Source: Sphagnum compactum (Eukaryota). From it: a stretch of 64,000 bases of DNA. The position numbers were made by a program, and so were the translations under genes. Numbering within the stretch: the first letter of the stretch is position 1; every line of letters begins with the position of its first letter. The notes under the pieces are model-generated. The model saw nothing but the letters and a program-made list of their open reading frames with translations. It was not told the DNA's origin and ran no database searches. Shown here one piece after another: positions 9,916 through 47,896 of the stretch. The DNA lies in NCBI GenBank assembly GCA_965153455.1, contig OZ234493.1:24790213-24854212 (forward strand), in the 5' to 3' direction.

Positions 9916-10284
9916 AGAGTCGCTGTGCCGACGCTCTTCCTCCTGGGGTTTTTCTTGAAGACGGTGTTTTCGCTCTTGGTTGGTGGAGCGATGAGAGTTA
10001 TCTGGTAGAATCCTGCAGTGTTCTGTGATAAATATTGTCTGCAGGGCGAAAGTCCCCATTTAAGCGGAAAACCAGAGCATTGAGCATGCGCGAGTAAACC
10101 GGATTTAATGCGCGGGTTTGAATCATGTTTAACATCTCTTGCACTAGTGTTTGCAAGCAGTTGCCATGCCTACGACAAGGGATGTGATCTGTTGCTCTGG
10201 TTGTAGGGTTCTTGGTTTTCTCTGTGGCCAGTATGCTTGGAGGAAAATCTGCAAGGCTTAAGTGTCTTTGAGAATTCTGTGACT

Positions 10285-11913
10285 ATGGGTTTTCATCAGA
10301 GGTTGTTGTTGCTACCAGCTTGTACGCATTGTCGTTGTGCCATACTACCCACATCGCTTTCACTTTCCCGCGCTTTGAACACAGTCTGTCTCTTCTCTAC
10401 TCAACCTTTAGCTCTCGCCCGCCCCCGCACTGCACCTCCTTCAGCGCCAACAATCTCAAGCAAATGGTGGAAGGAAGCAGCACCGTTGCGGGGGTTGTGT
10501 CTCGGTTTCTTTTCTCATCAATTCAGCAGTAGAGCAAGAACTAGGGTTGCAACAGCTCAAGCTCGACTCTCCGAAGTCTCTTTCACAGAAGAGTCAGGGC
10601 TTGTTTTGACAGATACTGGCAACCAAACTCTAGAAGGAGATAATAGTAAGGCTGTGAAAAAGTTACCGGGTTCGAATATAGTGATCTCTGGACCAGATTT
10701 AGGCCGCACTGCGCAAGTGAAGCAAGCTGAGTTCATCAAGAGCAGCAGCAAGGAGACGGAGTGTCCTACTGAAGGATTCCCTGAAATTGCATTAGTTGGC
10801 CGCTCCAATGTTGGGAAATCGTCCTTGATAAATGCGATGGTCCAGCGCAAAGAGCTAGCGCAGACCTCCAAGAAGCCTGGTGCATGTCTATCCTTCTGCT
10901 TATCCTCCCCCCCTCTCTCCACCCGTCTCTCCCATTATGGCAATGTCTCTTACATGATATCATCTTGCAGGTAAAACACAGCTCATCAACCATTTCCTCA
11001 TCAATAAGAAGTGGTACTTGGTGGATTTGCCTGGCTATGGGTAATTCTTCTTTCTTTTCTTGCTCATATTTGTTGCATGAAATCAACTTTGGATGTGTCT
11101 TTGTACTCATGTTCTTGGAGATCTTCCACCAAACAGCAAGTACTCAGCTGAATTCTTCCACGGTTGAAAGTCTAACACTCACCACAGTCAGATATTCCGA
11201 AGGGCAAGAGAACCTTGAAATTGTGTTTGTAGCAGTCTTTCTTGTGTATATGAGGAGGCAGTTTTGAGGACTGGATGGGTAGAGCCCTGGGCATTAGAGT
11301 GCGAAAGGAACTCAGCGCCACAAAGGTTTTGAGATTGGGAGAGGGTGGCTGTAATTGCAGGTTTGCAAAGGCTCCAACAGCCATCCGCACTGATTGGAAT
11401 GAGTTCACAAAAGACTACTTTCTGAATCGAAAGACACTTGTCACAGTGCTGTTGTTGGTTGATGCATGCATCCCTCCACAACAAATTGACCTTGACTGCA
11501 TTGATTGGCTTGGCCGAAACAAAGTAAGTTGGCATTTGCTTCTCTTGTATCTGGACTTCAGGTAGCAACAGTCTTTTGATTTTTTTTCCTCTCCTAGTAC
11601 ATCATGAGCAGAGAGACATTAACTTCCACTCATCTTACATACTCGTTAATAATATTAGCTTACACTCCTGTAAACCTCTGTTTGTGGAATATTGTAGATT
11701 CCAGTCACTATTGTATTCACCAAGTGCGACAGGAAGAAGAAGAAAAAGAATGGGGGGAGAAATCCTGAGGAAAACATACAGGATTTTCTAGACAAACTGA
11801 AGGCCTTCTTCGATGACACTCCACCATGGATCATGACCAGTGCAACAACAGGACAAGGGAGGGATGAACTGATGCGGCACCTTGCCCAGTTGAGATTATT
11901 TTGGGATAGTTGA
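10285..11913 (+). CDS. engB: EngB/YihA-family ribosome-biogenesis GTP-binding protein, probably organelle-targeted (At2g22870-like), 4 exons, about 347 aa
   Basis: Exons 10285-10879, 10971-11040, 11361-11523 and 11698-11913 join in frame. Motifs: G1 GRSNVGKS, G2 KPGKT, G3 DLPGYG, G4 TKCD, and C-terminal [25 protein letters not shown]. The long Ser/Arg-rich N-terminus resembles a transit peptide. Confidence 0.94.
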
Positions 11914-17556: not shown

Positions 17557-20157
17557 CTAGTTGATGGCACATGTGAATTGCATAAGGAGCAGAAGAATGG
17601 GGTCTAACAGATTGATGAGTGGGAGGACAAGGACGAGGATGAGCACAACTCCTATCATGAATGTATTACCTGATTCAGAAGCTGATTCAGAAGCTGATGC
17701 TGCAGCAGTAACTCCTCCTGATGACGGCACATCTGCCACTGCATTGCCATTGAAGCATTTCTTGATTTGAAAACAAGCAAAATCCTTACCTGCGAAGCGC
17801 ATTATCCTGATTCCAAGAGTATGATGATTATCATCATTGTCAAAGGATTCACAACAGCTTGATTCATCCCCACCATGCCCATCCAGTGGATTGTTGGAGG
17901 AAGTGTCTTCAGTGCTCGGTAATGATTTGGAAGCTGCAAATCTCTTTGAAGAATTTTCAGCAGCAGCAGGATTACAAGCTCGTTGTTGTTCTTGAGAGAA
18001 GCTTTTTTGGTCAAAAAAATTGGTCTGAGATGCTGCTGCTGCTGCTGCTGCTGCTGTTTCCAATGTTGCTTGGCTTGCTGGTAATGGAGCTTTCCCAACT
18101 GTTGCATTCTCTGCCTCCTTGTGTCTGAGCTCTTCTTCATCAAATCCTGTCCCTTGGAACTCTTCAAGAGTTGACTTTCTACAGGCCATTTCTTGCATCA
18201 ACTTTGTTGACTTCATCTGCTCAATAATATGCCCAGAGCCCACCTCCTCAAAAAGTTTAGAAGATGGTGAGCTCGGGAAGGAAAAGAAAGAATCTGGGTC
18301 TGGATCTTGCTCCTCTTTTTCTTCTTCGTCTTCTATCTGAGCTTCACAATCCTGAATTAAATTACCACAAGTGCTGCTGCTACTGCAACAAAGATCACTG
18401 CACTCCTTCCCTGCTGATATAATTCTGATTCGTAAGCAGCTTGTTGGGCAATCCAACCAACCCTGATGAGGATTCTTAGAATCCTCACCACTTTGTGATG
18501 ATGGTAGAAGTTGTTCTCCTACATTGGCCGAAGAATCTTGTTCTCCTTCCTTGCTCCTTACTCCATGATCTGGTGCCAAATCTGCTCGCCTGCTGCATCC
18601 CAGTTTCTGAGCTACATTGCCACTGTCCACATCTTGAAGCTTCACATCATTGTTTTGTGAATTGGTTGTGAAACTTCCATCTTTTTGTTCTTCAGAGATT
18701 CTGGGCGGTGTTCTCTGAAGTTCAAGAGTGGTCCTACAATCCTCCCTGGAGGTTGTCATCCTCCTATTCCTAAGAATGTCAGGATGAGGAGGAGCATTGC
18801 AGCAGTTTGGCTGATCTTGGCTTGATTCTCTAAGAAGCTCAGCACTAGTGCAACATGGACCAGCACATCCTGGTATTGCTGAAGAAGAAGTTGCTCCTCC
18901 TCCTCCTCCTCTTCCGTCATCTTGATCAGCTTTGTAGCTTGTAGGAACTACTGCCCTTAGTTCAAACCCTGGCACACAGCTGAGGTTAGCTCCTCGTTCG
19001 TCTTCACGCTCAACTTCGCCTTGTCCCTGTTTCTTCTTCAGTGTCTGAGTTGGGGGGATTTGCAGAGGCCTTGTAGCAGCCAGGCAAGCAGCGGATTGCC
19101 GGGCTGCATTCACTACAGATGCCCACCTGCTGCTGCTGCTGCTGCATGTTGCTGGAAAACAAAATTCAAAGAGCGACTTCTGATCTGTATATTGCGCAAG
19201 CTCGTCCTCATGGTAATACATCCCGGGTTTGAAGAGATCTACAGTTCCAGGATCCGAATCCTCAGAGCTCGTCTCAGCGGCTGTAACATCGGTCTCGTCT
19301 TGTTCCTCGTCCTCCTCGTCCTCTTCCTCTTCCTCTTCCTCCCCGAGTGTAATGTCGTTCTCTTCGGGGACGCAGCTCGCCAAGGCATAACCTCCTTGCA
19401 GCTCCTGCAGCTCATCAGGCCTATTCCCTGACGAGGTCTGGAAGTTGTGCGAGCTGTCGTTCTCGTTTAGGAACAGGAACGTGTCTCGAGCCGCGGCTTT
19501 GGCAGCGGACTCGGCGTAGGATTTGGCGATGGCATCGAGACCATCATGCTGCTTCATCATAATAGCGTGTTGCTCGAAGCCTTGAGGTCGGATGAAGGGC
19601 GTGCTGAGATACGACGCGAAGGAGATCTCAGCCGGGGACTTAGTCTCGTCGGACGATGTCTTGCAGAGGATGGAGGAGAGCAGGTTAGTGAGGTGCGCGG
19701 ACAGGATATCGGAGGAATTGTTACCCACCAAGGAAGAACGTCCTTGTCCTCGTCCTCGTCGTTTACAAAACAGCGACCCCAGCTGACCCATCTCCCCCAC
19801 CTCGGCGGAGGATCGCGACGAGTCGAAGCTCAAGGTTTTGAAGAGGGAGTTGGTGGAATTACGACTGTTCCTACTGCTGCTGTAGCTCATGCGCGAGCTA
19901 CTGGCTCTCGAGTCTATATGGTAGCTGCATTCTTCTTCTTCTTCTTCTTCTTCTTCCTCCGCCTCCTCGTCTTCTTCCTGCTCAAATTCATTCAGGTGCT
20001 CCAACGCGCTCGATGCGCACAACCCCATTGCGACGCACGGAAACAACAAATCGCCCGAGGTGGGGACCCGTGTGCTGCTGCTGCTGCTGCTGCTCCTCCT
20101 CCTAGTGCTCAGCAAACCTCGAACATACAGCCACAAACCTTCACCCCATGACTGCAA
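17557..20157 (-). CDS. Large low-complexity (Ser/Glu-rich) protein of unknown function; the true start may be ATG 20028 (MGLCASS) and the 3' end may be spliced
   Basis: 866-codon open frame with poly-E, -S, -A and -G tracts. A candidate donor at 17670 (G|GTAAT) and a phase-compatible exon at 17276-17127 (GTLRNLIFHGGKAVRK...) suggest a spliced continuation. No domain recognised. Confidence 0.7.
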   Translation of the reverse strand: MQSWGEGLWLYVRGLLSTRRRSSSSSSSTRVPTSGDLLFPCVAMGLCASSALEHLNEFEQEEDEEAEEEEEEEEEECSYHIDSRASSSRMSYSSSRNSRNSTNSLFKTLSFDSSRSSAEVGEMGQLGSLFCKRRGRGQGRSSLVGNNSSDILSAHLTNLLSSILCKTSSDETKSPAEISFASYLSTPFIRPQGFEQHAIMMKQHDGLDAIAKSYAESAAKAAARDTFLFLNENDSSHNFQTSSGNRPDELQELQGGYALASCVPEENDITLGEEEEEEEDEEDEEQDETDVTAAETSSEDSDPGTVDLFKPGMYYHEDELAQYTDQKSLFEFCFPATCSSSSSRWASVVNAARQSAACLAATRPLQIPPTQTLKKKQGQGEVEREDERGANLSCVPGFELRAVVPTSYKADQDDGRGGGGGATSSSAIPGCAGPCCTSAELLRESSQDQPNCCNAPPHPDILRNRRMTTSREDCRTTLELQRTPPRISEEQKDGSFTTNSQNNDVKLQDVDSGNVAQKLGCSRRADLAPDHGVRSKEGEQDSSANVGEQLLPSSQSGEDSKNPHQGWLDCPTSCLRIRIISAGKECSDLCCSSSSTCGNLIQDCEAQIEDEEEKEEQDPDPDSFFSFPSSPSSKLFEEVGSGHIIEQMKSTKLMQEMACRKSTLEEFQGTGFDEEELRHKEAENATVGKAPLPASQATLETAAAAAAAASQTNFFDQKSFSQEQQRACNPAAAENSSKRFAASKSLPSTEDTSSNNPLDGHGGDESSCCESFDNDDNHHTLGIRIMRFAGKDFACFQIKKCFNGNAVADVPSSGGVTAAASASESASESGNTFMIGVVLILVLVLPLINLLDPILLLLMQFTCAIN

Positions 20158-23100
20158 AACGAGCTTGCTTTCTCAAACAAGGAAATAAGCTTCAAGACCA
20201 GAAGAGAGATTCACAATTCAGGTCCCAGAATACAAACAAAAAAATTCGACAAACACGGAGACAAAATCGTCATCTCCATAAACACTGTTCATCATCTTGC
20301 TTGCAACTTCTAGGGATTTGAATCAAAACCCTTCGACTTGCTTTGCTGGTCTCTCTCCAAGTCATATCCAACAAAGCCAGCCTCACACAAGTTACTGAAT
20401 GCTGATGTACTTCTCCAGCAACTAGCTCATGCATCAGGTTTGAAACTTCAAGCATGCAACAACAAGTTCCTCCTCCTCCTCCTCCTCCTCCTCCTTCTTC
20501 TTGTGCATTATTTAAAACTGGTCCAGCCCTGCACTGAGAGATTGCTGCCAATAACTCCCATTTGCAGCAAATACAAACCGATTTCAAGACATTATCTGAA
20601 ATTCTTGCTACTCATCATGTCAGCTAAAAGCCCTCCTTTCTTCTAGCGTCAGCTCAGTGCTACCTAAGCTTTGTGGTACCTGAGAGAGAGGTCCATGACA
20701 AATCCCAATTTTCCTCTTCTTCTTCTTCTTCTTCTTCTTCTAGTGTCAGTTCAGTGCTTGCTAAGTTTTGTGTACCTGAGAGAGAGGTCCATGACAAATC
20801 CCACTGCCATAAATTCTTCCAGCTTCATACATTCCAAGCTCTCTACTCCCCCCCTCCCCACCTCCCCTATTCCTTCCTTCCATCTAATCTCCACAACACA
20901 AACACTTACAGCTTCCTTTTTGTCATGAGAAACTTATCAGCAAAAACCAATCAGCATTTCATGGCTGCTGAAAAGGAAGTTGTGAAAAACTGAAACACAA
21001 GTAAAACCAAAATAAGGAAAAAAAACCAACCCAAAAAATAACTCTGGATCTTCAAAAAACTGGAGATGGTGATGAGCATGTGAGCACCAGTGGAGGAATC
21101 AAATGAGAGGAATTTGATGAGATTAAAAAAACTATGGAAAGACCAATCAATCTATCTGTCTTTGTGTTTTAGTTGAGGTTCAGATGATAGCAGCCACCAC
21201 AAGTAGCCAAACCTTTTTTACCCATGTTTTCCAATGCATGTTTTCACCATCCCACTTTCATTCTTTGTGGTAGAGTACTCATCTGCTACTACTACTGGAT
21301 TCATTATTGGATACAATTTCAATGTGGAATCTGGGATTTTTCTGAATATATGGATTGGCTCTCTTTTACCCAATGTTTGCACCATACCCCCTTTCTTTCT
21401 TTGTAGAAGCTACTATTGGATTTGTTATTGGACACAATATTTCAATGTGGAAAACGGGTTTTTTCTTTGAAATGGGTTCTCTCTCTCACATCCACAAAAA
21501 TACAAAAGAAAGAAAGAAACACCAACACCCATGACATACGAGTAGCAGCATGATTCAGGTAGGGGGTACACCAAAAGATCTATGGGTGCATTATTATTTT
21601 CCAGGTCATGATAGCAGCTGGTAAGAACTATGAACAACTTATCAGTGATGCTCGTGGTATGGTAGTACCATGTTGGGAAGGTGGTGGGTTGGTGACAAGC
21701 TTATCCTTTTAAATACATTGAAAAATGTCTACATTGCATTTTTATTATTACAAAACCAGAGGTCATAATTGTATGACAGGAAGTATAGTATTGGGTCTTT
21801 TCTGTGTGTGTGTGTGAGAGAGAGAGGCTGCACACATGCACTTAAAAGAGGTGATTTGATGCTTATGATTCCTTATTGAAAAGCCGATTTCCAAATTGTC
21901 TCTTTGGTGTCTTTGGTGTGGTGTGCTTGTGTGTGTGTGTGAGTGGTGATTGTCTATTTAGCAACTTTTTTTCAGGCCTCTGTCCTTCTGGGTTGGTGTG
22001 GATCTCTATAGAAAATTGATGGTTATGATGATGACCACATGTAGCTGGGTTCATTTTTGCAAGGACAAAGCTTGGTGAGGTGGAGAGGAGCAAAGGATTG
22101 GTTGTATAAAGAGTTTTCCTTTTTGGTTTCTTTCTAGACATTTGGGTCTTTGTCTTGTCCATTTGTCTCCATTTGTCTGATGTGGTGTTCCCTTGGCAAT
22201 CCCAAGAACTCATTCATTATCTCGAGGCCTCAATATGTGTGCATTGGGTTGGTGAAGGTTGGAAAACATTTGCTTCACAAGTGCATCCAAAAAGCTTTTC
22301 CATACAAGATTTTCTTTGAGGGCTGTGTTGTTGCATCTCTGTTTTTACCTTGAGGAGGCCCCCAAGTAGGAAAAAAATGCTTGTTTTGTGAATCTGTTCA
22401 TTATTAACATATTACAATGCTGTCAAATTTCTGGGTGGTGCACAATTATCCTAAGCTAACACCTTATACATATATGTATTCCTGGCCCTGTTCTTATACT
22501 TATACATCTTCTAATGAAGTTTGAGATAGTTGGCCTTCTTGTCCTCCTTCAAGATCCTACATGAACACTTACCAGACTGTTGGATCTAGTGAATTGCTTA
22601 AAAAAAGTCTCATACCTTCTCTTCTTTCTCCATCTTTTTGGCGCATTCTAGCTACTTTGAGCAAATGCAACAAGGTGAAAATGTAGTTGGAGATTTGGAG
22701 GCGGACAATTGCCCATGAGTGGAGAAATACAATGCAATTGAAACTTCTGGTCTTGTATGTCTAAACTCTATAAGCACTAAGAGATACTCCTAGATCATTG
22801 AAGGAACAACATCAACCCCCAAACTAAGCCTTCATTAAAACATAAAAAATGTCACATGATAAGCTTCACACGCCCTACATATCGAGCCATTATTTCCATA
22901 GAACTCATATCAAGTCTCTTTGAGCATTCAACTTCCAAACAAGTCCTAGATATATAATAACAATTCAATTTCATGCCCCTAAACCACAATAATCCTCCAC
23001 ATTTTCTAACATCTTGAATGTTGTCCATCTTGACTATCATGTTTGCAACATCAAAGCGCAAACATGGGGACACATATCTTCATCTCTAGCATAAGCTCTC

Positions 23101-31180: not shown

Positions 31181-34100
31181 GAAAAAAAAACTATGAACTA
31201 TGATTAGAAATGAATTTTGAGGTAGGTTTTTTTGAACAATCATTCAGTGGTTGTGGAAACTTCTTCAATGGCAATGAGTGCTTTTGTAAAATGAAATAAA
31301 ATTCAAACAAAATTTTTGGTTGATAACATGGATCGAAGAATATGGATGGGGATTCCAACTTAGAAAAGAAAGGTTGTTGTTGTCAAATGTTGAAGGTAAT
31401 CCAATCGTGTTGGGCTATTCATTTGCTGTTTTGGCTATGGTTGTAGATGTTTCCAGATATGGGAATTTTAGACATGATATGCTTGTATTCAATTTGGTGT
31501 TGATTGATGGACCTTATAAGGAGGCCATGGTACAAATGTTGGAGGATGGACAAGTGAAGGGATAAATCTTGGTGTAGTAGCAAAATATTCTAGTGGATTT
31601 CAATGTTGGTCTTCGGAGAAGTCTTGAGTTTTTGGTTTGAGTAAGCATGTGGATGGATACATTGTAGATAGGTGCAATACTTTGCAATGTATCAAACAAC
31701 TAAATTGGAACATGGAAGGATAGTGATGAGAATTCTAGGCTTGCCATGGTTTGGGTGAGGATTGGGATTGTGGAAAACTTCAAGATATTGGGCATTGGGT
31801 GGAGTAGCATATTGCATAAGTAGTGTGTTTTGGATGTGTCTTATGTTTTAACTTGATTAGAGTTTGGTGTTTGGTGAAATTTGCAATAACCTTGTGGGTT
31901 GTAGATGTGTATCATGAGTCACAAAGTTGTTGGATGAGATGATCAAATGAAGTCAATGAGTAGTGAATATTGTGAGACATTTGGATTGTGCTATGGAAGA
32001 TTTTAAGGTGTCATAATGTACATGAATTGGGTTTCTTGAAGTGGATGTTGATTAGAACAACAAATCTTCTAGAGGAGCTAGGAGTCGTAATTAAAATTAT
32101 GTAGCTTGTTGAGGTGTGTTTATGTTGGAGTTGAAGTCTAAGTAATGTGATGTCTCGTGTGAGATTCAATCAAGTGGTAGAACAACTATATTGGTGGGGA
32201 ACACCATTCATTGTTGTGAGATTGAAGTTCTATGGTACCTCTTGTTTTTTTGTGTTGTATGGTAGTGTTCTCAATCATATATCTAGTGTGTTTGCGTGAT
32301 TGGATCTCTTAGATGTAAGGATGAAAATGGATGTTAGTTGGAACATTGGATTGAGTGGCATTTCCAACATTGTGGGCTTGGGCAACGAGGCGCATAACTA
32401 CATTGGTGCAAGATAGAATTTAACCTCTTTCATTTTGAAATATGTTACTAGTTGTGCATATTGATAACAATTAGTTTCTTGATATTTCATAATTTACTTG
32501 ACTCTAAATAAAATCTGCAACTACCTAATGAAAGTGTGATTAGTGCTTTTGTGATTTTACATTAGGTTTTGTATTTGTAACCTTTCCTTTTTGGTTACAG
32601 AACAAGCTAATAATGCGTAGGACTTATAAGCATTAGGGTTTTGTAAAAACCTTCCAATAAATTCTTCCTATAGTTGGAGGAGTGCTTACAACACTTAAGA
32701 TCCCTCAATGCATTTTGGAAAACAAGATGCTCACAAGATTGGGAGATGAAACACCCATTCTTGTGTGCATTTCATTCTCCAAAATTTCGTGATGCAATTA
32801 ATGCCCTTGAGCCGGGGTGATTACCCTACACAAAGCTATAGAGACTGTACAGCTTCAAATTTTCTTTTTTAAATGGCACTTGGAGGAGTGAATTTTCCAA
32901 TAAATCAGCAATTTAGAAAGTAATTTAATGACCACGGAATCTGTTACGACACTACAATAGTAACTTGCGTTCTTTTAATGACAAATTAACATGAAATTGT
33001 ATTGTGCATGTGCTGAGCACATCTCAGCCCACACGCTGTATTTGGGCTTCTATCAATGTTTACCACATCCCACATACAGTGTTCATTATTCCCCCATCCC
33101 CCACCCACAAACGTGAAAAAGTGGACGGTATGCAGTGAGACACTATTTACATGACACCACTGAATGCCTCAATAAGAAAGTAGTTTCTGACTCACTACCC
33201 TAAAATGTGAACCCTAGAACTCTAAATTTCTAGTTCTGAAACAGATGGCTCATGATTAGAGACTCGACTCCAAATGGATGGATACTGCTGTATCCTTTGT
33301 CGGGAGCAAAGGAATTTGCAAAATGCAGCAACAACCTTGATTGTGAATTGCCACCATATTCACCCACCAGGTCTGAGTCCACCTCCTACTGCACCTCCAA
33401 AACACCTGCTGGCACTTATCTCCTATTGGCAGAATTTGTAGCACTTTCCCTTGTGGTAGGTAACATATCTTGCTTTCTTTAGCTTTATGGATTTTCACAT
33501 CTTTCATCTGTGCCAAACCACCAAAAAAATAAATTCTGTCAGGTTTACAGCAGTTGGACTATAGACGCCATCCCTCCAGCCTCCTTCTCCTCTGAGTTAT
33601 CTCTCTGCTTGCTGTCCTCATCATGGAAGGACCCCTTATGATAATCAGAGTGTGAGAAATGAAGAGACAAGGTCTTAAACCACTGCTTTGCTCCTTAGGA
33701 GTGTCACAATGTACTCCTCCCTCTTAGCATGTGATTTTCTCTTGAGTCTCCTCCTCACCAAACATGCATTGCATTCTGCCTCGAGAAGCTATAAATCAAT
33801 TTGTGATGTGCCGTGTGTTGAGTACAGTCGCAGAAGGATTTCAGTGCCAGAGAAGGAATCTGGATATTAATGGATCAATCCAATGAGTCTGGTTTGTTTG
33901 TTCCTCCTCTTGCTGCTGTTTGCATGATACTACTCAGATCAAAGAGAGTGGCCTGATGATGAAGCTTCCTGCAAAATACAATCCGCTTGCATTCTGGTTT
34001 GGAAGATTCTTAGCCAATTTACCCTCAGTCTACCCTCCAAAGGGTGGACTTCAGTCTTCTACTTCAACACGGCATGTCTTCTAATCAAGCACACCCTCAT

Positions 34101-34196
34101 GTCCAAATTATCAGATGGAATATAAGGGGATTGACGTGCTGTAAACAAGAGAACTATTCCAGGGCCATTGAGAAGAAAAACTTGCGGCATTCTCTC

Positions 34197-36566
34197 TCAC
34201 CAATAATCCCTGCAAGAACAATAACCATCCTCGAAGTGATGAAAGCGATGGGCATCCCTAACAATGATTGTTCTCCCAACTATTCTCGAAATAAATTTGG
34301 TAGCAGTGTGGCAGTCACCACAAATGCGCAAATTCTTGAAAATGCGAAGTGAAGTGCCAGGAGGAGTGCTGATAAGTCCAAATGCAATGGCCAGCTTCTC
34401 ACTGTGATAACACAATTGAAGTGCCTTTTCTTCTTCATCTACATCATGTAACACAAATCTGGTATCTGGTACATATCCTATCTCCTCCATCTGTGCAGAC
34501 AACTTCCTTAATTTTGCATGGATTTCAGTGATATGAGGATGTCCTTGGTCATCTACCATAAATGAATGCATCTCATTATTCACCTCAATCCAAGTGCGCC
34601 CTGGTTCTTTCTTCACTCCCCTTTCTAGCCTCTGACATTGAATATCTGCACTGATATCCCACTTGCCAGCAGCAGCATAGATGTTTGATAGCAGCACATA
34701 GCCTGCAGAATTTCCAGGATCCAAGTCAATAACTTCTTTTGCAATCCGCTCTCCCATCTCCACATTTCCACAAACTCTGCAAGCACCAAGCAAAGCCTTC
34801 CACACAGCAACATTGGGTTCAAAAGGCATTGTCTTGATGAGATCCTCTGCCTCGTCCAGATGGCCAGCACGGCCAAGAAGATCAACCATGCAGGCATAGT
34901 GCTCCACTGTTGAAGAAATACCATAAACTAATCCCATGGATTCATAGTAGTGCATGCCTTCATCAACAAGGCCCAGATGGCTACAAGCTGACAAAAGAGC
35001 AACAAGAGTGACATTGTCTACCTCTACACCTTCTTTGCACATCCTTTCAAGAAGCTCAAGAGCTTCTTTAGCAAGCCCATGCATGGCATATCCTCCAAGC
35101 ATAGTATTCCAAGCAACAACATCACGTGTGGTCATCTTGTTGAAAACTTTCTGTGCATCATCTATGACCCCACATTTGGAATACATGTCAATGAGGCTAT
35201 TCGCCACAAAGACATCAGAGCCCAAACCGTTTTGAATTATCTGTTCCTGAACACACCTGCCTTCATTGAGTGATGCTACACTGGCACATGCATTGAGAAC
35301 TGCCAAAAAAGTGGCACGGTCTGGCTCTGCCCCTTCTTCGCATTGCATTCTTTGAAACAATTCCAATGCCTCTTGCGCTTGCCCAGATTTCACATGTGCC
35401 AGAATCATAGCATTATAAGACACCACATCTCGTGCATCCATCTTGTTGAAAACTTTCCTTGCATCTGCTAAGCTCCCACATTTGGCATACATGTCAATGA
35501 GTCCACTCTCCACAAAAATATTGCACTCACAGCCAGATTGAATGATCTGTGCATGAATCTGTCTGCCTGATTCAAGTGCTCGTAAACTAGCACATGCATT
35601 GAGCAACTGCACAAATGTGAAGCTGTCTGGGATCAAGCCCTCTTGTTGCATTTGTGCAAAAAGATCCAATGCCTTGTGATGTAAGCCTGCCTTGACATAT
35701 CGTGCAAGCCTCAAATTCCATGGGAAAATATTCAGTTGCACAGTTCCTGGCACCATTGTAGCTATCTCTGCTTCTACCCATGAGGGTTTGAATTTATCAC
35801 TGAGCCAGAGTCCTTCCCGTGTCTTCTTGTGTTTGAAATCAGGATATCTTGGATTTGCCTATGACCAGAAGAATACAAAATCCAGTGGCTGATCAGCTCC
35901 TTAGCTACTACCACACTCCTCTATTCACAGCAGCTTTTGTGAACACCAGAGTGCACACACTGGGTCCTTTTCTCAACGTACTGACTTGCTACAAGAAACA
36001 AAGAAAATTGCAACATCTTAAAAGAAACAGCTCTCATTTTACCTTCTCTGACCTATGATCCCACCATTGTGAAGGATCTGAGAAGAACTCCCGCCAAAGT
36101 TTCTCCACACTCTTTCTTTTCTGACCTGCCATGCAAATAACACACAGGAAAAAATTAATGGGTGTGCAAAATTCAGCCAGCAAATTGGCAAATCTTAACT
36201 GAGAGACCACGCAAATCCATACATACATCGTCTAAACGACTTCCAGGCCCGGCAATGAAACGGTAGTAGCAACACAAATGTGAGAACAGTAAAAAGGGGG
36301 AAAACTTAACCACCGCCATGGCCTCTCAGCGGCGCCTTGATTTCGACCCATTGCACCACGAGGAGAGCGACAGGGGACGCATCAGAATGCACCTGAATTC
36401 GTTGGATATGATGGCGCACAGGCTGCTGCTGCCGCTGTAAACGGACTCCTGGTAACAGTATTCTATCCTCCTTCCTTTCTCTCGATGTAGCAGCATTCTT
36501 GTACTGCAGAGATGGTGCGAAATTCCCCGCAGTCACCCCTTGCACTTCCCTCGGCAATGAAACCAT
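34197..36566 (-). CDS. PLS-class PPR protein with E1-E2-DYW deaminase domain (organellar C-to-U RNA-editing factor) and an N-terminal OSB-type PDF motif; 3 exons, start codon uncertain
   Basis: The main exon 35858-34197 encodes 9 PLS repeats, E motifs, a PG box (PGRTWIEV), HSEKLA, CGDCH and terminal DYW. Upstream exons 36125-36043 (phase 1 to 0) and about 36566-36311 (phase 1) splice in frame via GT-AG introns. Confidence 0.93.
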
Positions 36567-38490
36567 TTCCTCCGTCCGTCCCCACACACTCCCCAACCCC
36601 AAGTTCTCAAAACATCAACGACACTCCTCCGTGACTCCCCCCCAACACGCACTCTCCTCCCTCTCACGCCAACATCAACAACACAAACATCATCGCCACC
36701 CACCACCTTCCATCAAACCGTCGATGACGACGACAACAATACGACGCCACAGACATCGCCACCGCCCCCACCTTCAAGCAAACCCATCAACAACGCAATA
36801 GAGACAAAACCTCACCAAGACCCCCACCAAAAGAACCACATCTTCTGGGCACGGTTCCAGTTAGAGGCGGCTAAAACTCACCCGCCATACTTCAGGGTCT
36901 GTTCTTAGGGTCAGATCTAGCAAGGAGACCGCCCCCGCCTATTTATAACGCAACTTTTTGCTTTCTCTCCAGTCTCTTGGATCTTGACTTGAGGGACCCA
37001 CCCTAGCGAAGGCCGGGTGGGTATACCCTCTCTAACTGGTACAGCGCTCAACGAGTCCACCACTTCCTCCCTCTCTTTATCGTTGTTTTGGTTTTTCGTG
37101 GCATGGCGAAGTGCGTGCGTGCGAGCGAGCACGATGTTTGCTTGAGGCCGTGGTTCTTCGACGTCCTCCTGCTTCTGTGTTTTTTTGGTTGGTGAGTACC
37201 TATGTGTATCCGTTTGTTGTCAAATTCTCTCTGTTTTGTTGTTCTTTTGATTGATGCTTTGTTTTTGGTCAATTTTTTCTTTGGAAGATATAACTGCAGC
37301 AAAATGTTCCTCACAATTGCAACAATCTTCTCCGGTTCACCGGTTTTCCAAAGAAATAGAACAGAGCTGCAAGAATTCCACTCATATTATTATAAGAAAC
37401 GGAGAAACGTGAAATTTGTGAATTGTGTTGTAAATTTAGTCTATTTCTTCTGCCCTCTTGGTTTTGTGTTGTTGCTGGTGATGATGGAGGTGATGGTGGT
37501 GATAGTGGTGGTGGTGGTGCTACGGGAGCGGCTTTTTTGTGTTTGGTTTCATATGTGTCAGGTTCTTCAATTTGGTGTGCGTTTCTTGAATTTTATGCTT
37601 CCGCCATTCGTACGCGGTGCTGCAGCTGCGGAGTTTTTGTCGATTAACGCCAAGTTTTCTTTTGGAAGAAGAGTATCATTATCGTCGTCATTCAAGCTTA
37701 ATAACCTGTACCAATTTTCCACCTTCAATGCAAACAAGCAGTGGATGAGTTGGAATATTGGTTGTTAAACTCCATGAGTTCTGAGTTGAAATGAACAAGA
37801 AATTTCAACAGATTCATGTTTGGCACAATTGTCACTGGAATTCTTTGATGTCCGTTTGTTGTTGCAACTGTTATTAGCATCAACCTCGAAACTGGTAGTT
37901 TTGATTTGTATCATCTTCCTGGCTCACTTGAAAGTGGGTTTCAATGATCATGTGTTGTTACATTATTTGAGCATCTCTGTTGGCAATCTTTAACACATGA
38001 CATCTTCCTAATTCTGATTAGATTCATGTGGGCTTCTGTTGCCAAGGCATTGCATGATTGCAGGTGTTCAGGGGATGTAAATCGTAACCCTGTCTCCTGA
38101 CCACTATGATCAATGCGGTATGACCTCTCTCTCACCCTTCCTTCTCTCAAAAGCTGGACTGATTTGAAGGTTGGATTTTGGCTGATTGCCAACACATGCA
38201 TGCATGCAACAAGGTGTAATTTAAGTCTATATAGTTTTGAAAGAGCAAGAGTTTCTTGAACAAAGAGTCTGCAATGCAGGAAGATCCCAAGGGCTCTTTC
38301 TCTCCCTGTGTTGCTGTGACATAATTTGTTTGCCAAGTTTGTTGGTAATCTAATTTTAACTTAGCATGGAGATGTCATGGGACATAAGAGCTACAACAAT
38401 CGTTGGAACAGAGAAACCCTTCCAGTTGGTGTTGTGTTGATTTGACTTCATTCCTTGTGCAGCTTGAGACAGTCTTGACATTTGTGAACA

Positions 38491-40881: not shown

Positions 40882-43800
40882 TCAAAGTCTTTGGGTTCCA
40901 ATTGTATCTAAAAGTCTAGAGATTTGGAGCATAGATGGCCGCTTTGACCTCATGTCTTCTGTACACCAGACAGCTAATCCTAACACTCTGACCAATTCCT
41001 GCTTCATCCCACATTCCCTAAATGTACACTCAAACTCAGGAATACCATCAAACCCTGACATTGGACTATACCCAAAGCTGCTGCGGCGAGCATTTGATGC
41101 AGGACTTGACACACTACTTAAGCCAAGGCTAAACCTTGGAGGAAGCCTCACATGTCCCCCACCTCTCATCTCCATACATGACAAATTAGCCCCTGGAGCA
41201 GCAGCAGTAACAGCAAAGCTAGGACTGAAGTGGACTGGGTGAACATCAGGGCTGAATAATGGACTCCTCCCAGGGCTTGATGCTTGGCTTGACCCTGGGG
41301 AAAAATGAGGGTGAACATAAGAATCAACTCCTCCTACTAGTCTATCTACATGGTCTCTTAGCTCTGCATCCAACTCCAGAATCAGCTCAGGGTCAAGGAT
41401 CTCAAGAATCTTGCTTTGTAGAACTGAATGTCTAACCCAACTAATCAGATCTGAATCTTCTTTGTCTGTGAAAAATCGATCAGTAGGACGCTTTCCTGTA
41501 AGAATTTCCAGGAGCACAATCCCAAAACTATACACATCTCCCTTGGTGGATGCCAGGGCACACTGTCCATATTCGGGAGGAATGTAACCGACGGTGCCTG
41601 CAAACTGTGTACTCAGGTGACTGTCATACGCTGAGATCAGACGTGCTAGCCCAAAATCTGCGATGAAGGCATTGAAATCAGCATCTAGCAATATATTGGA
41701 TGCCTTTATATCACGATGAATTACATGTGGAACACATACATGGTGGAGAAATACCAAGCCCCTTGCAGCTCCCTGCAATGATATAAGATAACAGAGAGTC
41801 AGTTCAACCATTAGTGTAAAAGCACTAATTTACACTCTGTTAACCACAGTTTTGCACATAACAGAAGACCTAATATATGAACAGCGCTGTGGAGGTTGAT
41901 TAATATGCTGGCATGCCCTTGATTAGCCAGATACAAGCAAGTGGTTCTGTGTGCCTAAGGTGTTGGAATCAACTCAAAACCTTAGCTATAGCACACCAAC
42001 TTTAAGCTTGTTTCTTCTCCTCACAAAGCATACAAGGACTTTAAAGGATACTCAGGATATTCTAGATATAGCAAGGAGAATCAAAATTTGGATTAGAACA
42101 AGTACTACACTTGGATCTGGTGTGATTCTAGCAGAATGGCATAAAAAACCAAGTCAACACCCGCAGATTTGGAATGAGAGGACAGCACACAAACCTGGGC
42201 TATTTTCAGCCTTGTAGACCAATTCAATCCAGTTCTTCCAGCACAAATGAAAGCATTTCTGTGGAGCCAAAGGTCCAGATTCCCATTGCACTTGTACTCA
42301 TACACCAAAACTCGATCTGAGCCAAATGTGCAGTAGCCAAGTAAGGGCACAATGTTAGCATGTTTGACTTTCCCGAGTGTTTCCATTTCAGCCAAGAACT
42401 CCCTCTCTCCTTCGGTCTTATCACCCATCAGTCTCTTCACTGCCACTACCCTGTTGTCCTGCCTCAACAAATGCAGCAACATATTCAAACACCATTAACC
42501 TACCCAACATAACAACTGCACAATTTGCCAACCTACTTTTGGCCCCTGCAAGACAAGGCTTTGGTGGAAAGAAAGTGATGGTGCAAGATTCTGGATCAGC
42601 AACCAAATACTGTTGCCATCAGCTGCTACTTTCTCTTCCTCACAATTGAGTTTCAAAATCTTTTCCAAACTGCCCTAATCTCAGTTCGAACCACAAATTA
42701 TTCCTGATAGGTGCCCCAAGCAAGCTTGGTAACTTGCTCTAAAATTTTGAGGTTCAAATAATAAATTTTACCCCTTTTCTTAAGGACTCTCACTGAAGAG
42801 AAATCTAGGCTAAACTGTTACCTTGAATGTAGCTTTGTAGACAGTGCCAAAACCACCATCCCCAATGACATTCTCTATGGAAAAATTGTTGGTGGCTTCC
42901 ATGAGATCACCCAAAGTCAACTTTGGCAAAAGGGTTTCAAACATAGCCACATTGATGCTGAGAGCGTCTTTTGGGGTTGGCCACTCATGGGTCACTAAAT
43001 CATGAACAGCCAACAACCTTGTCAAAATTTTCCGCCGTCGTGAAAGCTCCCACCAGCATAGCAGCCCCAATACAGCCCAAGTGCCCATGCCTGTTGCAAG
43101 CACTATGCATACCAAGGCACCTGTTCGCAGTTGACCCCGATGTTTGCTGCAAGAACATCATACAAATATACAGCATGTAAGCACCATTTTTCATCACTAA
43201 GTTCAGAAATATCCAAACCTAAACCATTGCTAATCCACTATTTTGAAAAGTTCAAGCTACAAGTGAAGTCAAAACATAAAAGTTGTTGAGAACTCTGCAA
43301 ATCGTAGGCCTGATTCTATGACCAGCCCCTTGCTATGGAGTCTTCTGTCTTCACAGAAAAGAAATTCAGGTGTAAGTGAGAGTGTCAGAGAACTTATTAC
43401 CTAAAAGCAGATCTATGACCATTGCCATCACTTATATTCATCAGCTGTGCAGAGGGTGGACCACAGGTTCTACCAACAGGCACACCACACAGGCCCAAAT
43501 TTTTGGAGAATGAGTCTGGTCCAAATGTGTCAAACTGGCCCTGCTCTGGGATTGGCCCAGTTAGCTGGTTCTGAGAAACATTGAAGAAACTCAGAAATGA
43601 AAGATTCTCAAGCTCTGCTGGTATTACTCCTTGAAAGGAATTTTGAGACAGGTCAAGGTAACAAAGGGCTTCTGCATCTCCAAGAGAAGCAGGAATTTCA
43701 CCAAAGAGTTTGTTATCATGAACATCGAGAACCCACAGGTTTTTAAGCTCCCCAAAATCAGCTGGAAGAGTACCCGAAAAATGATTACCACCAAGCAACA

Positions 43801-46768
43801 GATATGTTTGGCCCCTGGAGGCTCCTATGTACATCATGTCCAAGGCCCAATTGGTTATTGTTTCTGGACTTGCTGGTTGGGGAGTCAACAATGAATCTTG
43901 GCTTTGGAAGTAGGTTACATTTGCAAGCCCCATGGGAATTTCCCCAGAGAGGCTGTTGAAAGAAAGATCCAATGCTTGCAGTTTAGTCAACTGACTAATC
44001 CAAGTAGGAAATGTACCAGTAAAATTGTTTTGACCCAATAGTAAGAAACGAAGGGAGATCAATCTTGCAAGTTGTGACGGTAGGTTGCCAGAGAGCATGT
44101 TTCCTGCTAAATCCAACCCTTCTAGAAGAGCAAGATCTCCCAACTGCAATGGAATACTCCCTGACAGATTGTTGAAGGAAAGGGAGAGGACCACCAAGTT
44201 TGGAAGCTGGCCCAATTCTGCTGGGATCTCACCATTGAAGGCATTTGAACCCAAGTACACTGTCTCCAAATATTGACAGTTTGCCAAGCTAGAGGGAAGT
44301 TGGCCTTCAAGTTTGTTGTTGGCAACTGACAAGGCAACAAGATTTGGTAAATTGCCCAACCAAGCACCAAGATTTCCTGTCCATGCATTATGGTCAAGCC
44401 AGAGCTGTTGTAGCCATCTACAGTGTGCAAGTGACTCAGGAATGCTTCCAGTCAAGTTGTTGAAAGAGAGAGCAATGAGATGGAGAAATTGGAGTTGTCC
44501 CCATTCAAGTGGAATACTTCCACAGAAGTTGTTCGAGGGCAGAATAATCTCTTCCAAAAATGGTGAGGTTCTTCCCCATGCAGGTAAGCTCCCTGAGAGA
44601 CTGTTCTTCCCCATTGCCACTACTTTGAGCCAGCTAAACCTTGTAAAGCATACTGGAATTTCACCTTTGGAGGAAGACACAAGAATGAAGGTTAATCAAG
44701 AAAATCCATCCATTAGATTGGCAGAAAATTTTCTATAACACCAGGATTGAGTTGAGACAATTCTGTGAGGAAGAACCTTCAATCATCAGGCACATTTTAC
44801 TTCATGGTTGAAATCCCAATACAACAAAAGCTGAAAAAATAACTTTAGGTACCTTGAAGTGAATTGAAGGATAGCAGTAGAAATCTGAGGAGTATACAGT
44901 TGCAGAGGGCTGGCGGTAAGAAGCCCGTAAGATTGTTTGACTGGAGGTCCAGGAAGAGCAGCAACCCAAGATTTCCAAGACTAGAAGGAACCAAACCAGT
45001 CAGGTTGTTGGAAGAGAGTGACAAAACTTTCAGGGATTCAAGGTTGCCAAGAGACATGGGGATGGATCCTGATATAAATGTGTGATTCACATACAAGGCC
45101 TTCAGCTGCACACAAGAAAATGCACAACCAGCATGATCAGCCATTTGAACCCTTTTCCAACTGTATCAAATCATCTGGAGTTGTAGCCCAAGAATGAAGA
45201 GAACGAGGAACTCAATTGCAGCTCATAGACTGAAATCTAGCTAGCCTCCCCCCCTTTGCTGTTGTTAAACATCTCCAAACCCCTTTGCTTGTCTCAACAG
45301 TTTGCTGCTGATTTTTGTCATTGATCCTTCAATCAATCTTTTGAGAAGCAGTTAATGAAAACCAAACCTTGGTGAGTTGAGAAAGCTCATCAGGAAGGCT
45401 CCCAGAAAACTGGTTGTTTGAAAGGTCCAATACTTGGAGGGAGGAAAGCATTCCCAGTGAGTTGGGTATACTGCCGTTCAGCAAATTGTTTGAGAGTCTG
45501 AGTACTAGGAGAGAAGAGATCATGCCAAGAGACAAGGGAATGCTCCCACTCAAGCTGTTCCTCTGGAGCCGAAGCACTTTCAACAACCAAAGATTCCCAA
45601 ACTGAAATGGAATGCCTCCTGTGAGACTATTGTTTTGAAGATCCAGGACTTTTAGCAGCTGAAGACCTGTGAGTTGGATTGGAATAACACCACTGAGATT
45701 GTTATGTGCAAGAGAGAGAAACTCGAGGCTTTGGAGGCATCCCACATTGGGAGGGATGATACCATGCAAGTTGTTGAAAGAGAAAGAAATGTATCTAACA
45801 CCTGCCATCCCACACAGCTCAGGAATCTCTCCAGAGATATTATTCCCAGAAAGACTGATGCCCTTCAAGCTCTTGATTGCCAAGAGGTTTGCTGGTATGG
45901 AGCCACTCAGTTGATTGCCTCGCAAGTCCAGGACACCCAGATTAGCCAAAGATCCAATGCTCGCTGGAATGGAGCCAGAGAGACAGTTGAAGCTCAAATC
46001 AAGGCTGGTGAGATTGGGAAGCAACCCGAGCCATGAAGGGATCCCTCCAGAGAAGCTGTTGTGCGACAGATTGAGGGCCTGCAATCCTGTGAGAAGAGAA
46101 AATGAGAAAGGGATTGGCCCCCTCAAAGCTCTGTTGGAGAAATTGATGGCGATCACTCTTCCTTCATAGCACTGAACCCCAATCAAGTAACACATGGTGA
46201 TCAGATCCGTTTCCAATTTGCCAATGGCACTGTGAGATGATGCTGATGATCCCTCCAACTCTGCCGCTGTGCCCAGCAATCCTGCTGGCTCATCCATCCT
46301 GCCCTCCTCCAACAACCAAGAGGGCATCTGTTTGCTGAATTTCAATCTAGGGTACCTTTCAGCGAGCTTCCACCTGCTAATCTTCAGACTGTTGTTGATC
46401 TCCATTGATGGTGGTGCTCTCATATGTGGTTGTGCCAGAGATAGCAACCCCCGAACTCCTCCAGCTTGATTCCCTCCACTAAACAAGCATGGAGAAGGAG
46501 CAAGCATCTGGAGTCTCCCGTCCTCAACATCTTGCTGATCCACATGTCCACTAGTCGAGAATTCTTTTGCACCAGTCACCACCAGATTCTGACAGAATAC
46601 CCAGAAGAAGAAGAGCAAGGTCAGGAGGACATGCTTCCGATCTCTTCTTCTCCTTCCAGAAGCAGGACACTGGCATCCTCGATTATTATTCACGACTGAG
46701 GCTCCAGCAGAAGTGCCGCCGCCGCCGTCGTCGTCGTCGAGGTGGTTCTTGACCACCCAGGACCTCAT
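40882..46768 (-). CDS. Leucine-rich-repeat receptor-like kinase, LRR-X EMS1/BRI1/PSKR-like, 6 exons, about 1465 aa
   Basis: Exons 46768-45368, 45105-44853, 44664-43401, 43146-42822, 42458-42195 and 41772-40882 join in frame. It has many plant LRRs (LxLxxNxLsGxIP), a capping motif NLGLCG, a transmembrane helix, the juxtamembrane [35 protein letters not shown] (EMS1-like), and kinase motifs [20 protein letters not shown] and [10 protein letters not shown]. Confidence 0.93.
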
Positions 46769-47896
46769 TATTATTGCTTGAGCGAGGAGACAGAAGAGTC
46801 TCTCAAGTCGGCCCACAGCAGCACCACCACGAAGTTCCTCCTCACTACATTCTCTCTCTATTACTCCTCATCTCACGAGCTCCTCCTCCGCCTCCTCCTC
46901 CTCCTCCTCACAGCCATGGCCACCACCACCCCCAAGGCAAGTGGCCAAACTCCCCGGCAGCATGCTCATGAATTCCTTTTGCTGCTGGTCCTGCTGCTAC
47001 TCCTCCCTCTCACCCCGTACCCTCCTCTCTCTCTCTTCGATGTCCGAAAGAGCATTAATTTCTACAACCAAAATGCTTGCAAACCAGCAACCTCTTCTCT
47101 CTCGATCATCAATCCAATGTGATCGATCAAGAGCTTCTCTGGAGGGATCTCACTCAACTTGCTTACAATGAATTTCAACAACAAAGAAACAAAACCACAA
47201 AAAACGAAAAACAAAAAAAAAAAAAAAGCGCTTGATGCGCAAAGTCCTGAATAAAACACCTCGACAGGTACGAGAGATATGTCAGTCACCTGATGATTAT
47301 CATCATCATCATCACACACACACCCACAATCACACGGGTGTGTATTCTTGTCTCTATCTTTAGGCAGAGATTCTGTTGCAGGCAGCAAACGCAATTGAGT
47401 ACGCGTCCGTCACACACATATAATTAGTATAATACACATATTACACTAGAGTTTTGAAGGACATTTTTGCAACCGCGTCTGACTAGAGTCTCTACTGTCT
47501 GTGTTTTTGTCCTTGTAACTCAAATGATTGATTGCATCAAAAGGGGCCGCCGGCTCTTGAGTCCGTCTATCCTCCCATTTTGGCAGAATGGGGATGGAGC
47601 CCTTCTTGATTAATAAATGTCATAGGTTGGTTTTTTTTGGTTTTTGTTTCTGTTTTGGCAGAATGGACGTAGCCTTTTCCTATTCAATCAATGCCCACTT
47701 CTTTCTTCATAGTAGAAAAGCAATGATCAGGAAAAAAGCAATGATCCAAATCATAAATCAAGCAATTAATGTTGTAGGTTTTTGCTGATTGGGTTTAGCC
47801 TCTCTTACTCAATACCATTCTTTCATTCATTCTTTTAAGAGTTTAAACAAAAGAAAAAGCAGTGATTGAAATCAGGAATCGTGGGTTCATTTTTCA

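Follow-up and report, generated by a model that had tools for sequence, protein, structure and literature searches.

An OSB-type PDF motif at the N-terminus of a PLS-E-DYW pentatricopeptide repeat protein of Sphagnum compactum, one member of a family in bryophytes and a lycophyte

The window analysed here is a 64,000 nucleotide stretch of the Sphagnum compactum genome (assembly GCA_965153455.1, contig OZ234493.1, positions 24,790,213 to 24,854,212 of the forward strand). It carries a gene that encodes a pentatricopeptide repeat (PPR) protein of the PLS-E-DYW class, preceded by a PDF motif of the kind found in the OSB proteins, the organellar single-stranded DNA (ssDNA)-binding proteins of plants. 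All coordinates are positions in the window and all parts of the gene lie on its minus strand. The upstream coding exon (36314..36566) runs from MVSLPRE to RGHG and ends at a phase-1 donor (G/GT); it forms the N-terminus of the NCBI protein P0002 (S. compactum, 564 amino acids) and is joined to the downstream exons by an RNA contig, X3 record 22, that covers 36312–36544. Intron 1 (36126..36313, 188 nt, GT..AG) was placed by its splice-site sequence, by translation and by the length of X3 record 22. It is followed by exon 2 (36043..36125, 83 nt), which encodes the first half of the PDF motif and is defined by the sequence, the P0002 model and RNA joints, and by intron 2 (35859..36042, 184 nt, GT..AG, phase 0), which interrupts the motif and is defined by the sequence and an RNA joint. 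Exon 3 is an uninterrupted frame of 553 codons (35858–34197). It starts with the second half of the PDF motif (35757..35858), recognised by translation and by BLASTP to OSB3, and continues through the PPR array (34812..35729), the E1 and E2 motifs (34608..34811) and the DYW cytidine deaminase domain (34200..34607) to the residues CSCRDYW and the stop codon (34197-34199). The first methionine of the 553-codon frame is residue 35, such that 34 open codons precede it, as an earlier first-pass annotation made from the letters alone had noted. A six-frame scan found only one copy of the PDF motif in the 64-kb window. We are highly confident that the architecture, a PDF motif followed by PPR, E and DYW parts, is real.

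The joining of the two halves of the motif was examined with four RNA runs (X2, X3, X10 and X23, the last consisting of raw polyA RNA-seq reads) aligned to positions 33500–37000. The donor side of exon 2 reads CAGAGAAG up to the exon end at 36043 and GTAAAATG beyond it, and the acceptor side reads GGTCATAG before exon 3 and GCAAATCC from 35858 onwards. An RNA joint was present at 35857/36042, where CT..AC on the plus strand corresponds to GT..AG on the gene strand; moving the cut by one position places it at 35858/36043. This joint was supported by two X23 reads with different starts (74 nt on the shorter side), one X3 contig and one X10 contig, and the same junction is present in P0002. The splice of exon 2 to exon 3 is therefore real, and the in-frame junction that the first-pass annotation had proposed for the exon at 36125-36043 is borne out. 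X3 record 22 has a length of 546 nt, which is the sum of 232 nt of exon 3 (35627–35858), 83 nt of exon 2 and 231 nt of the upstream exon ending at 36314. Only the two outer pieces of this record were listed, and the 82 unlisted letters between them were taken as exon 2 from the lengths; the sum agrees with the three-exon structure of the NCBI model.

Several observations weigh against a picture of clean splicing and a tidy gene model. Unspliced pieces were found in X10 record 8 (35831–36071), X2 record 14 (35472–35956) and X3 record 23 (35888–36064), and the X2 contig record 15 (36108–36341) retains intron 1, over which RNA coverage was low in depth and inflated by paralogs. As many as 369 of the 456 X23 reads fitted only in part because paralogs share the motif, and the depth values are therefore inflated. 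RNA depth fell to about zero above 36542, which leaves the annotated ATG (36566-36564) uncovered, and the start codon of the annotated model is uncertain. An alternative donor at 36393, used in one X10 contig, puts the coding sequence out of frame with the annotated ATG; that form was set aside as minor or paralog-derived. Another in-frame ATG (36132-36130) lies within the first intron, five bases upstream of the acceptor. A start there (MAGQKRK...) would give a protein without presequence and with the PDF motif at its very N-terminus, provided that transcripts with a retained intron or an internal start were translated. At the other end of the gene, the contigs X2 record 9 and X3 record 17, together with X23 reads, extend at least 700 nt past the stop codon (33500-34200, minus strand) and may belong to a long 3′ UTR or to a transcript that overlaps the gene.

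Comparison of the exon 3 product with annotated proteins revealed 100% identity to P0002 over the searched part and 97% identity to proteins of Sphagnum troendelagicum and Sphagnum tenellum. The NCBI models P0002-P0004 include the upstream exon and join exon 2 to exon 3, whereas the JGI models P0009-P0011 (519 amino acids) begin at MAPGTV and are without the PDF motif. The statement of the first-pass annotation that open reading frame callers would miss the motif thus holds for the JGI models and not for those of NCBI; models of the JGI style, which start at the first methionine of the long exon, lose the PDF domain. P0002 also excises 101 residues of the PPR array, one S-P-L stretch, as an in-frame GT..AG intron (35453-35151) between near-identical repeats that contain KVFNKM. 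Both ends of the excised stretch are crossed by RNA contigs (X10 record 6 and X3 record 21 over 35170-35600, X2 record 12 over 34939-35198, and also X2 record 13), and no joint for it was among the 15 joints shown (13 more were not shown). The excision in P0002 is probably a gene-prediction artefact. As RNA contigs run through the ends of the supposed intron, the uninterrupted 553-codon exon was taken as the better model.

The PDF motif runs directly into nine PPR motifs, which are followed by E1 and E2 and then by the DYW deaminase. The PPR array (residues 44-349 of the 553-codon frame; Pfam PPR_2 E 6.6e-53, PPR E 4.8e-45) was segmented into P-L-S, P-L-S and P2-L2-S2 triplets with motif lengths of 35/35/31, 36/35/31 and 35/36/32 residues. 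The E1 and E2 motifs (residues 350-417) matched the Pfam E_motif with E 1.4e-14 and 54.5 bits against a cut-off of 27.3, and a match to Eplus_motif at residues 431-456 scored 23.1 bits, slightly below its cut-off of 24 bits. The DYW domain (residues 418-553) matched positions 1-93 of the 93 in the DYW_deaminase profile (E 7.1e-45) and contains a PG box, HSE at residue 485, CGDCH at 513 and CSCRDYW at 547-553. The sequence therefore has the features by which the PLS-E-DYW class is recognised (triplets ended by P2-L2-S2, E1 and E2, the HxE and CxxCH zinc site, a second zinc site and a terminal DYW), and the first-pass annotation was correct in calling this part of the protein intact. The gene product is predicted to be an organellar C-to-U RNA-editing factor of the PLS-E-DYW class, with targeting to an organelle presumed.

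The same organisation is described for Physcomitrium patens PPR56, which has PLS triplets ending in P2-L2-S2, E1 and E2, and a DYW domain with PG box, HSE and CxxCH (PMC10482289). The Sphagnum factor differs from PPR56, as described there, in having only nine PPR motifs and an N-terminal PDF domain. The fifth and last residues at its P and S motifs are ND, SD, ND, ND, ND and AN. According to the code in PMC10482289, in which the S2 motif faces position -4, these residues predict the target U-n-G-U-n-U-U-n-(a?) between -12 and -4 from the edited C. The nine-motif array is short and, read by this code, carries little sequence information.

An intact deaminase in the same protein as an ssDNA-binding motif had led to the suggestion that the protein could act on DNA, with the PDF motif presenting ssDNA to the DYW domain such that cytidines of organelle DNA are deaminated. 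This co-occurrence is the only point that can be raised for a DNA editor, and it amounts to nothing in favour of ssDNA deamination by this particular protein. The PDF motif and the deaminase lie at opposite ends of the chain with nine PPR motifs and E1/E2 between them, the DYW domain is of the standard RNA-editing type (PG box, HSE and CxxCH), and a plant would hardly tolerate a family of dozens of proteins that mutate its organelle DNA. We give this explanation almost no credence.

The identity of the motif was established with the 63-residue joined stretch (P0002 residues 85-147). A phmmer search against 1.84 billion proteins, one representative for each 50% cluster of about 15 billion, gave 907 matches at E ≤ 1e-3, 297 at E ≤ 1e-10 and 30 at E ≤ 1e-30. 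The top matches were proteins of 250-700 residues with 2-13 PDF copies, mostly toward the C-terminus. Amborella trichopoda 'protein OSB3, chloroplastic/mitochondrial' (P0039) was matched with E 3.2e-51, and BLASTP aligned the motif to all four copies in this protein with 37-48% identity (E 4e-18 to 7e-14). Pfam SSB (PF00436) was found in seven of ten OSB-like matches scanned, four of them above the cut-off; nine further matches comprised two with weak SSB, six PPR proteins and one kinesin model. The P-D-F signature is present in the Sphagnum motif as PDFKHK, and the 63 residues include ten aromatic residues and 14 Lys/Arg. Pfam gave zero families at E ≤ 10 for the motif alone and zero for exon 2 alone, and a search of the ESM Atlas with the motif gave a single 0.75 match to a phage cluster, which is under the useful level. 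OSB proteins were also absent among the 30 candidates of a first word-indexed search; this reflects the limits of the word index and not missing homology, as the exhaustive phmmer search found them. The matches identify the stretch as a true OSB-type PDF motif and not a chance resemblance, and the first-pass annotation had named it correctly.

Two further kinds of protein were seen among the matches. P0064 (Coptis chinensis, 1526 amino acids) is a kinesin-motor model with three PDF matches at about residues 337-387, which could reflect a fused gene model or a further PDF architecture. P0154, P0163 and P0171 are short (102-162 amino acids) and show no PPR repeats and no recognisable SSB part behind their single PDF motif; they could be fragments or PDF proteins that stand alone.

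The PDF motif is described in reviews as an element of about 50 residues in OSB proteins, named for Pro-Asp-Phe, and that of AtOSB1 is reported to suffice for binding ssDNA (PMC6963530, PMC4166229). OSB proteins have a central SSB-like OB fold followed by one to five C-terminal PDF copies (PMC4166229, PMC13393729). The Sphagnum protein shares with Arabidopsis OSB1-4 and Amborella OSB3 the same motif of about 50-60 residues with all of its core residues. It differs from them in having a single copy, at residues 85-147 of 564, that is N-terminal to the PPR, E and DYW parts, and in being without an OB fold: the 553-residue product matched 21 Pfam families at E ≤ 1, none of them SSB, and the upstream 83 residues are modelled as disordered.

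The motif was also found in other PPR proteins. The word-indexed search returned 26 matches among the 30 candidates. Every one of them was a PPR protein, and they came from species of Sphagnum, from the leafy liverwort Calypogeia fissa and from the lycophyte Diphasiastrum complanatum. Alignment of the PDF motif together with the first P motif from 12 sequences of these three lineages spanned 98 columns with zero gaps, and 23 of the 98 columns were invariant across the three. Of 8000 candidates scored with a profile made of the 98 columns, 181 matched at E ≤ 1e-3. Listed were the best 120 of these 181, from a search that ranks by shared words and is not a census; local phmmer detected the motif together with PPR repeats in all 93 new proteins among them. 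Counted by locus tag, there were at least 17 PDF and PPR loci in Sphagnum fallax, at least ten in Sphagnum magellanicum and at least 34 in D. complanatum, in addition to at least nine C. fissa proteins. Cluster look-ups added four D. complanatum loci and a protein of the fern Adiantum capillus-veneris (P0067), which carries two copies in a divergent form. Among the matches listed, named proteins with this combination came only from bryophytes, a lycophyte and a fern; proteins of Physcomitrium, hornworts, Selaginella or seed plants were not named among the best 120 of the 181 word-ranked profile matches.

Within the 328 proteins collected, 164 contained both a PDF motif and PPR repeats: 143 with one copy of the motif, 15 with two and six with three. 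The first copy was N-terminal in all 164 (median start at residue 47, latest at 216). In P0236 a second copy was found at about residue 735, past the start of the PPR match. An E or DYW part was detectable in 125 of the 164 and most of the others were fragments. These 328 proteins were gathered by the study's own searches, such that the counts are not a census. Additionally, P0046, P0092, P0131, P0184, P0012 and P0067 are lycophyte, fern and other PPR proteins that have two or three tandem PDF copies before the array, like the C-termini of group III OSB proteins. Taken on its sequences, the combination of PDF motif and PPR repeats is a large, old and conserved family in Sphagnum, a leafy liverwort and a lycophyte. 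The first-pass annotation had described a single chimeric editing factor; the gene in the window is instead one member of this family, and co-occurrence of the motif with PPR/DYW proteins was found in Sphagnum, C. fissa, D. complanatum and the fern.

Such conservation bears on whether the PDF motif could be an inherited leftover, derived from ancient exon shuffling and without a role of its own in this gene copy. The PPR array is unusually short and the start codon is without RNA cover, so the copy might be degenerating. Its open reading frame, however, is intact and transcribed, orthologs in two further Sphagnum species carry the motif with 97% identity, and the 23 invariant columns are shared by three plant lineages. 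That the motif is a mere remnant in this gene is very unlikely.

A tree was made from 507 near-complete motif copies, of which 453 were unique (124 linked to PPR repeats and 329 others). It was built with FastTree, a quick method, on about 60 columns with related rows and a sample shaped by the searches. PPR-linked and other copies share all core residues (W, P, W.D.R, K, PDFKHK, LWL and P.WV). The consensus of the PPR-linked copies includes E.lW and.R.eK.n.ryPDFKHK.T..aLWl....nPpWV, that of the other copies reads W..l...P..W.D.R..K..p..PDFkhk..g..LWl....P.Wv, and the PPR-linked copies are more uniform than those of the OSB type. One branch (support 94) united 120 of the 124 PPR-linked copies with six rows labelled as other, which proved to be N-terminal fragments, 87-159 residues long, that derive from Sphagnum, Calypogeia or metagenome records. 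Only ten label switches were observed on the tree compared to 101-117 in 100 shuffles. All three P0046 copies fell outside the main clade, as did the first of the two copies in the fern protein P0067. In this tree the PPR-linked motifs form essentially one clade separate from the OSB motifs. This points to one old fusion common to bryophytes and a lycophyte, with possibly separate events elsewhere.

The relationship to OSB proteins raises the explanation that the PDF motif is a nucleoid tether, binding ssDNA at transcription bubbles, R-loops or replication intermediates and thereby coupling editing to transcription. Binding of ssDNA, in preference to double-stranded DNA or RNA, is the sole reported activity of the motif (PMC6963530, PMC4166229), and the PPR-linked copies retain every core residue of the OSB type. 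On the other hand, the separate clade and the sharper consensus of the PPR-linked motifs are compatible with a changed ligand, and the gapless junction to the first PPR motif resembles a continuous binding surface and not a flexible tether. We consider a tether of this kind rather unlikely.

The 98-residue segment comprising the PDF motif and the first PPR motif was modelled with AlphaFold2 from a 43-row alignment (mean pLDDT 89.1, pTM 0.67). The model consists of a helix (2-11), short strands (16-18, 31-33 and about 39-40) and a second helix (51-57), followed by the PPR hairpin. In a model of full-length P0002, residues 1-86 had a pLDDT below 50 and confidence was good from residue 87 through the PPR array. 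Disorder of the first 86 residues agrees with a presequence, and the upstream exon (36314..36566) probably encodes one. Foldseek with the model of the PDF motif and first PPR gave zero matches at E ≤ 0.001 in the PDB, and its 20 weak rows were mostly PPR hairpins. VIA-align against 48,161 chains gave 105 at Z ≥ 2 and none at Z ≥ 5, the best (Z 2.9) being on the PPR part. A PDB sequence search with the motif gave one chance match (E 0.14), and no chain contains the motif. As modelled, the PDF domain is without a known fold match in these PDB searches, which does not prove a new fold.

The model of the two parts bears on a further explanation, in which the PDF domain is a capping or protein-contact module that stabilises the N-terminal end of the PPR solenoid, recruits a partner or oligomerises. 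The distance from the PDF motif to the first PPR motif is fixed, both were modelled as one confident unit, and the restriction of named members to bryophytes, a lycophyte and a fern among the matches listed is in keeping with such a role. MORF/RIP proteins assist PLS-type factors in seed plants and are a possible parallel to a contact module. AtOSB2 is reported to be a tetramer (PMC6963530). A prediction of a homodimer from two copies of the PDF motif and first PPR scored 0.00; it was run without controls and carries no weight either way. A mere cap, however, would need neither ten conserved aromatic residues nor homology to an autonomous ssDNA binder, no partner is known, and that seed plants lack the family is judged from the best 120 of 181 matches in one word-indexed search that was not a census. 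A role limited to capping or protein contact seems to us improbable, to about the same degree as the tether.

Among the mechanisms put forward by the first-pass annotation, that of an auxiliary nucleic-acid binder appears to fit the anatomy best. We tentatively propose that the PDF domain is a sequence-nonspecific clamp for single-stranded nucleic acid that lies 5′ of the PPR footprint, a reading to which we give a little less than an even chance and in which both RNA as the ligand and the position on it are presumed. PPR arrays bind RNA in parallel, with the N-terminal repeats on the 5′ nucleotides. The PDF domain would therefore be expected 5′ of the footprint, and would sit on the RNA just upstream of about -12. 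Its aromatic and basic residues would supply extra affinity, and this addition would matter most for short arrays such as the nine-motif one, which specifies about U-n-G-U-n-U-U.

A number of points weigh against a clamp of this kind. The PDF domain may do no more than cap the solenoid instead of lining up with the groove that holds the RNA. AtOSB1 and AtOSB2 favour ssDNA over double-stranded DNA or RNA (review PMC4166229), which points to a DNA ligand. Physcomitrium PPR56 edits in Escherichia coli with only 14 residues before its first PPR motif (PMC10482289), so factors of the PLS-DYW type can work without such a domain. Many members of the family have long PPR arrays, and compensation for a short array is therefore not a general reason for the presence of the domain.

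A precedent for an auxiliary binder is a P-class PPR protein with an N-terminal RRM (PMC9459714), which, like the Sphagnum protein, has a separate nucleic-acid-binding domain before its array. It differs in that the added domain is an RRM and is not homologous to the PDF motif, the protein is of the P and not the PLS class, and its function is rps12 trans-splicing and not editing. The review of Physcomitrium PPR proteins that describes it names RRM, SMR and NYN as added domains and names neither PDF nor OSB in the parts accessible to us (PMC9459714). In the accessible parts of that review and of the PPR56 paper (PMC10482289), an N-terminal nucleic-acid-binding domain of DYW-type editing factors is not mentioned. 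The words PPR and pentatricopeptide are both absent from the accessible text of a 2026 survey covering 182 OSB genes, whose supplements may list other PDF-bearing proteins (PMC13393729). Across the openly searchable literature, with subscription papers outside the scope, we found no description of a PDF motif linked to PPR proteins and no paper that describes or tests the architecture, in line with the first-pass annotation, whose author was aware of no functional characterisation. The PDF-PPR-DYW architecture is apparently undescribed.

Elsewhere in the window, three regions were assigned by eye from their translations. Long open reading frames at 40882-46867 (minus strand) resemble exons of a leucine-rich-repeat receptor-like kinase, one at 10207-10974 (plus strand) resembles a YihA/EngB-type GTPase, and one at 17557-20172 (minus strand) resembles a large acidic, Ser-rich protein.

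RNA editing in plant organelles owes both its specificity and its catalysis to PPR-DYW proteins, and programmable editors are being engineered from them; the confidently modelled PDF domain of about 60 residues is a candidate add-on for such designer proteins. PDF motifs have so far been known from OSB proteins alone, in which they bind ssDNA; OSB proteins guard the stability of organelle genomes. A broader and more speculative reading, which we hold to be unlikely, is that the PDF motif is an ancestral, family-wide accessory that couples dozens of PLS editing factors per genome to single strands in the nucleoid (the displaced DNA strand, R-loops and nascent RNA) in early-diverging land plants. 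Editing would then be co-transcriptional and independent of MORF proteins, and in OSB proteins, too, the PDF motif would in truth bind single strands in general, a property common to both families. To our knowledge, these early-diverging plants lack MORF helpers. The fusion in dozens of genes per genome in mosses, liverworts and lycophytes is a second, unreported context of the PDF motif that can reveal its true ligand, and it suggests that the editing factors of these plants carry an accessory module for affinity or tethering.

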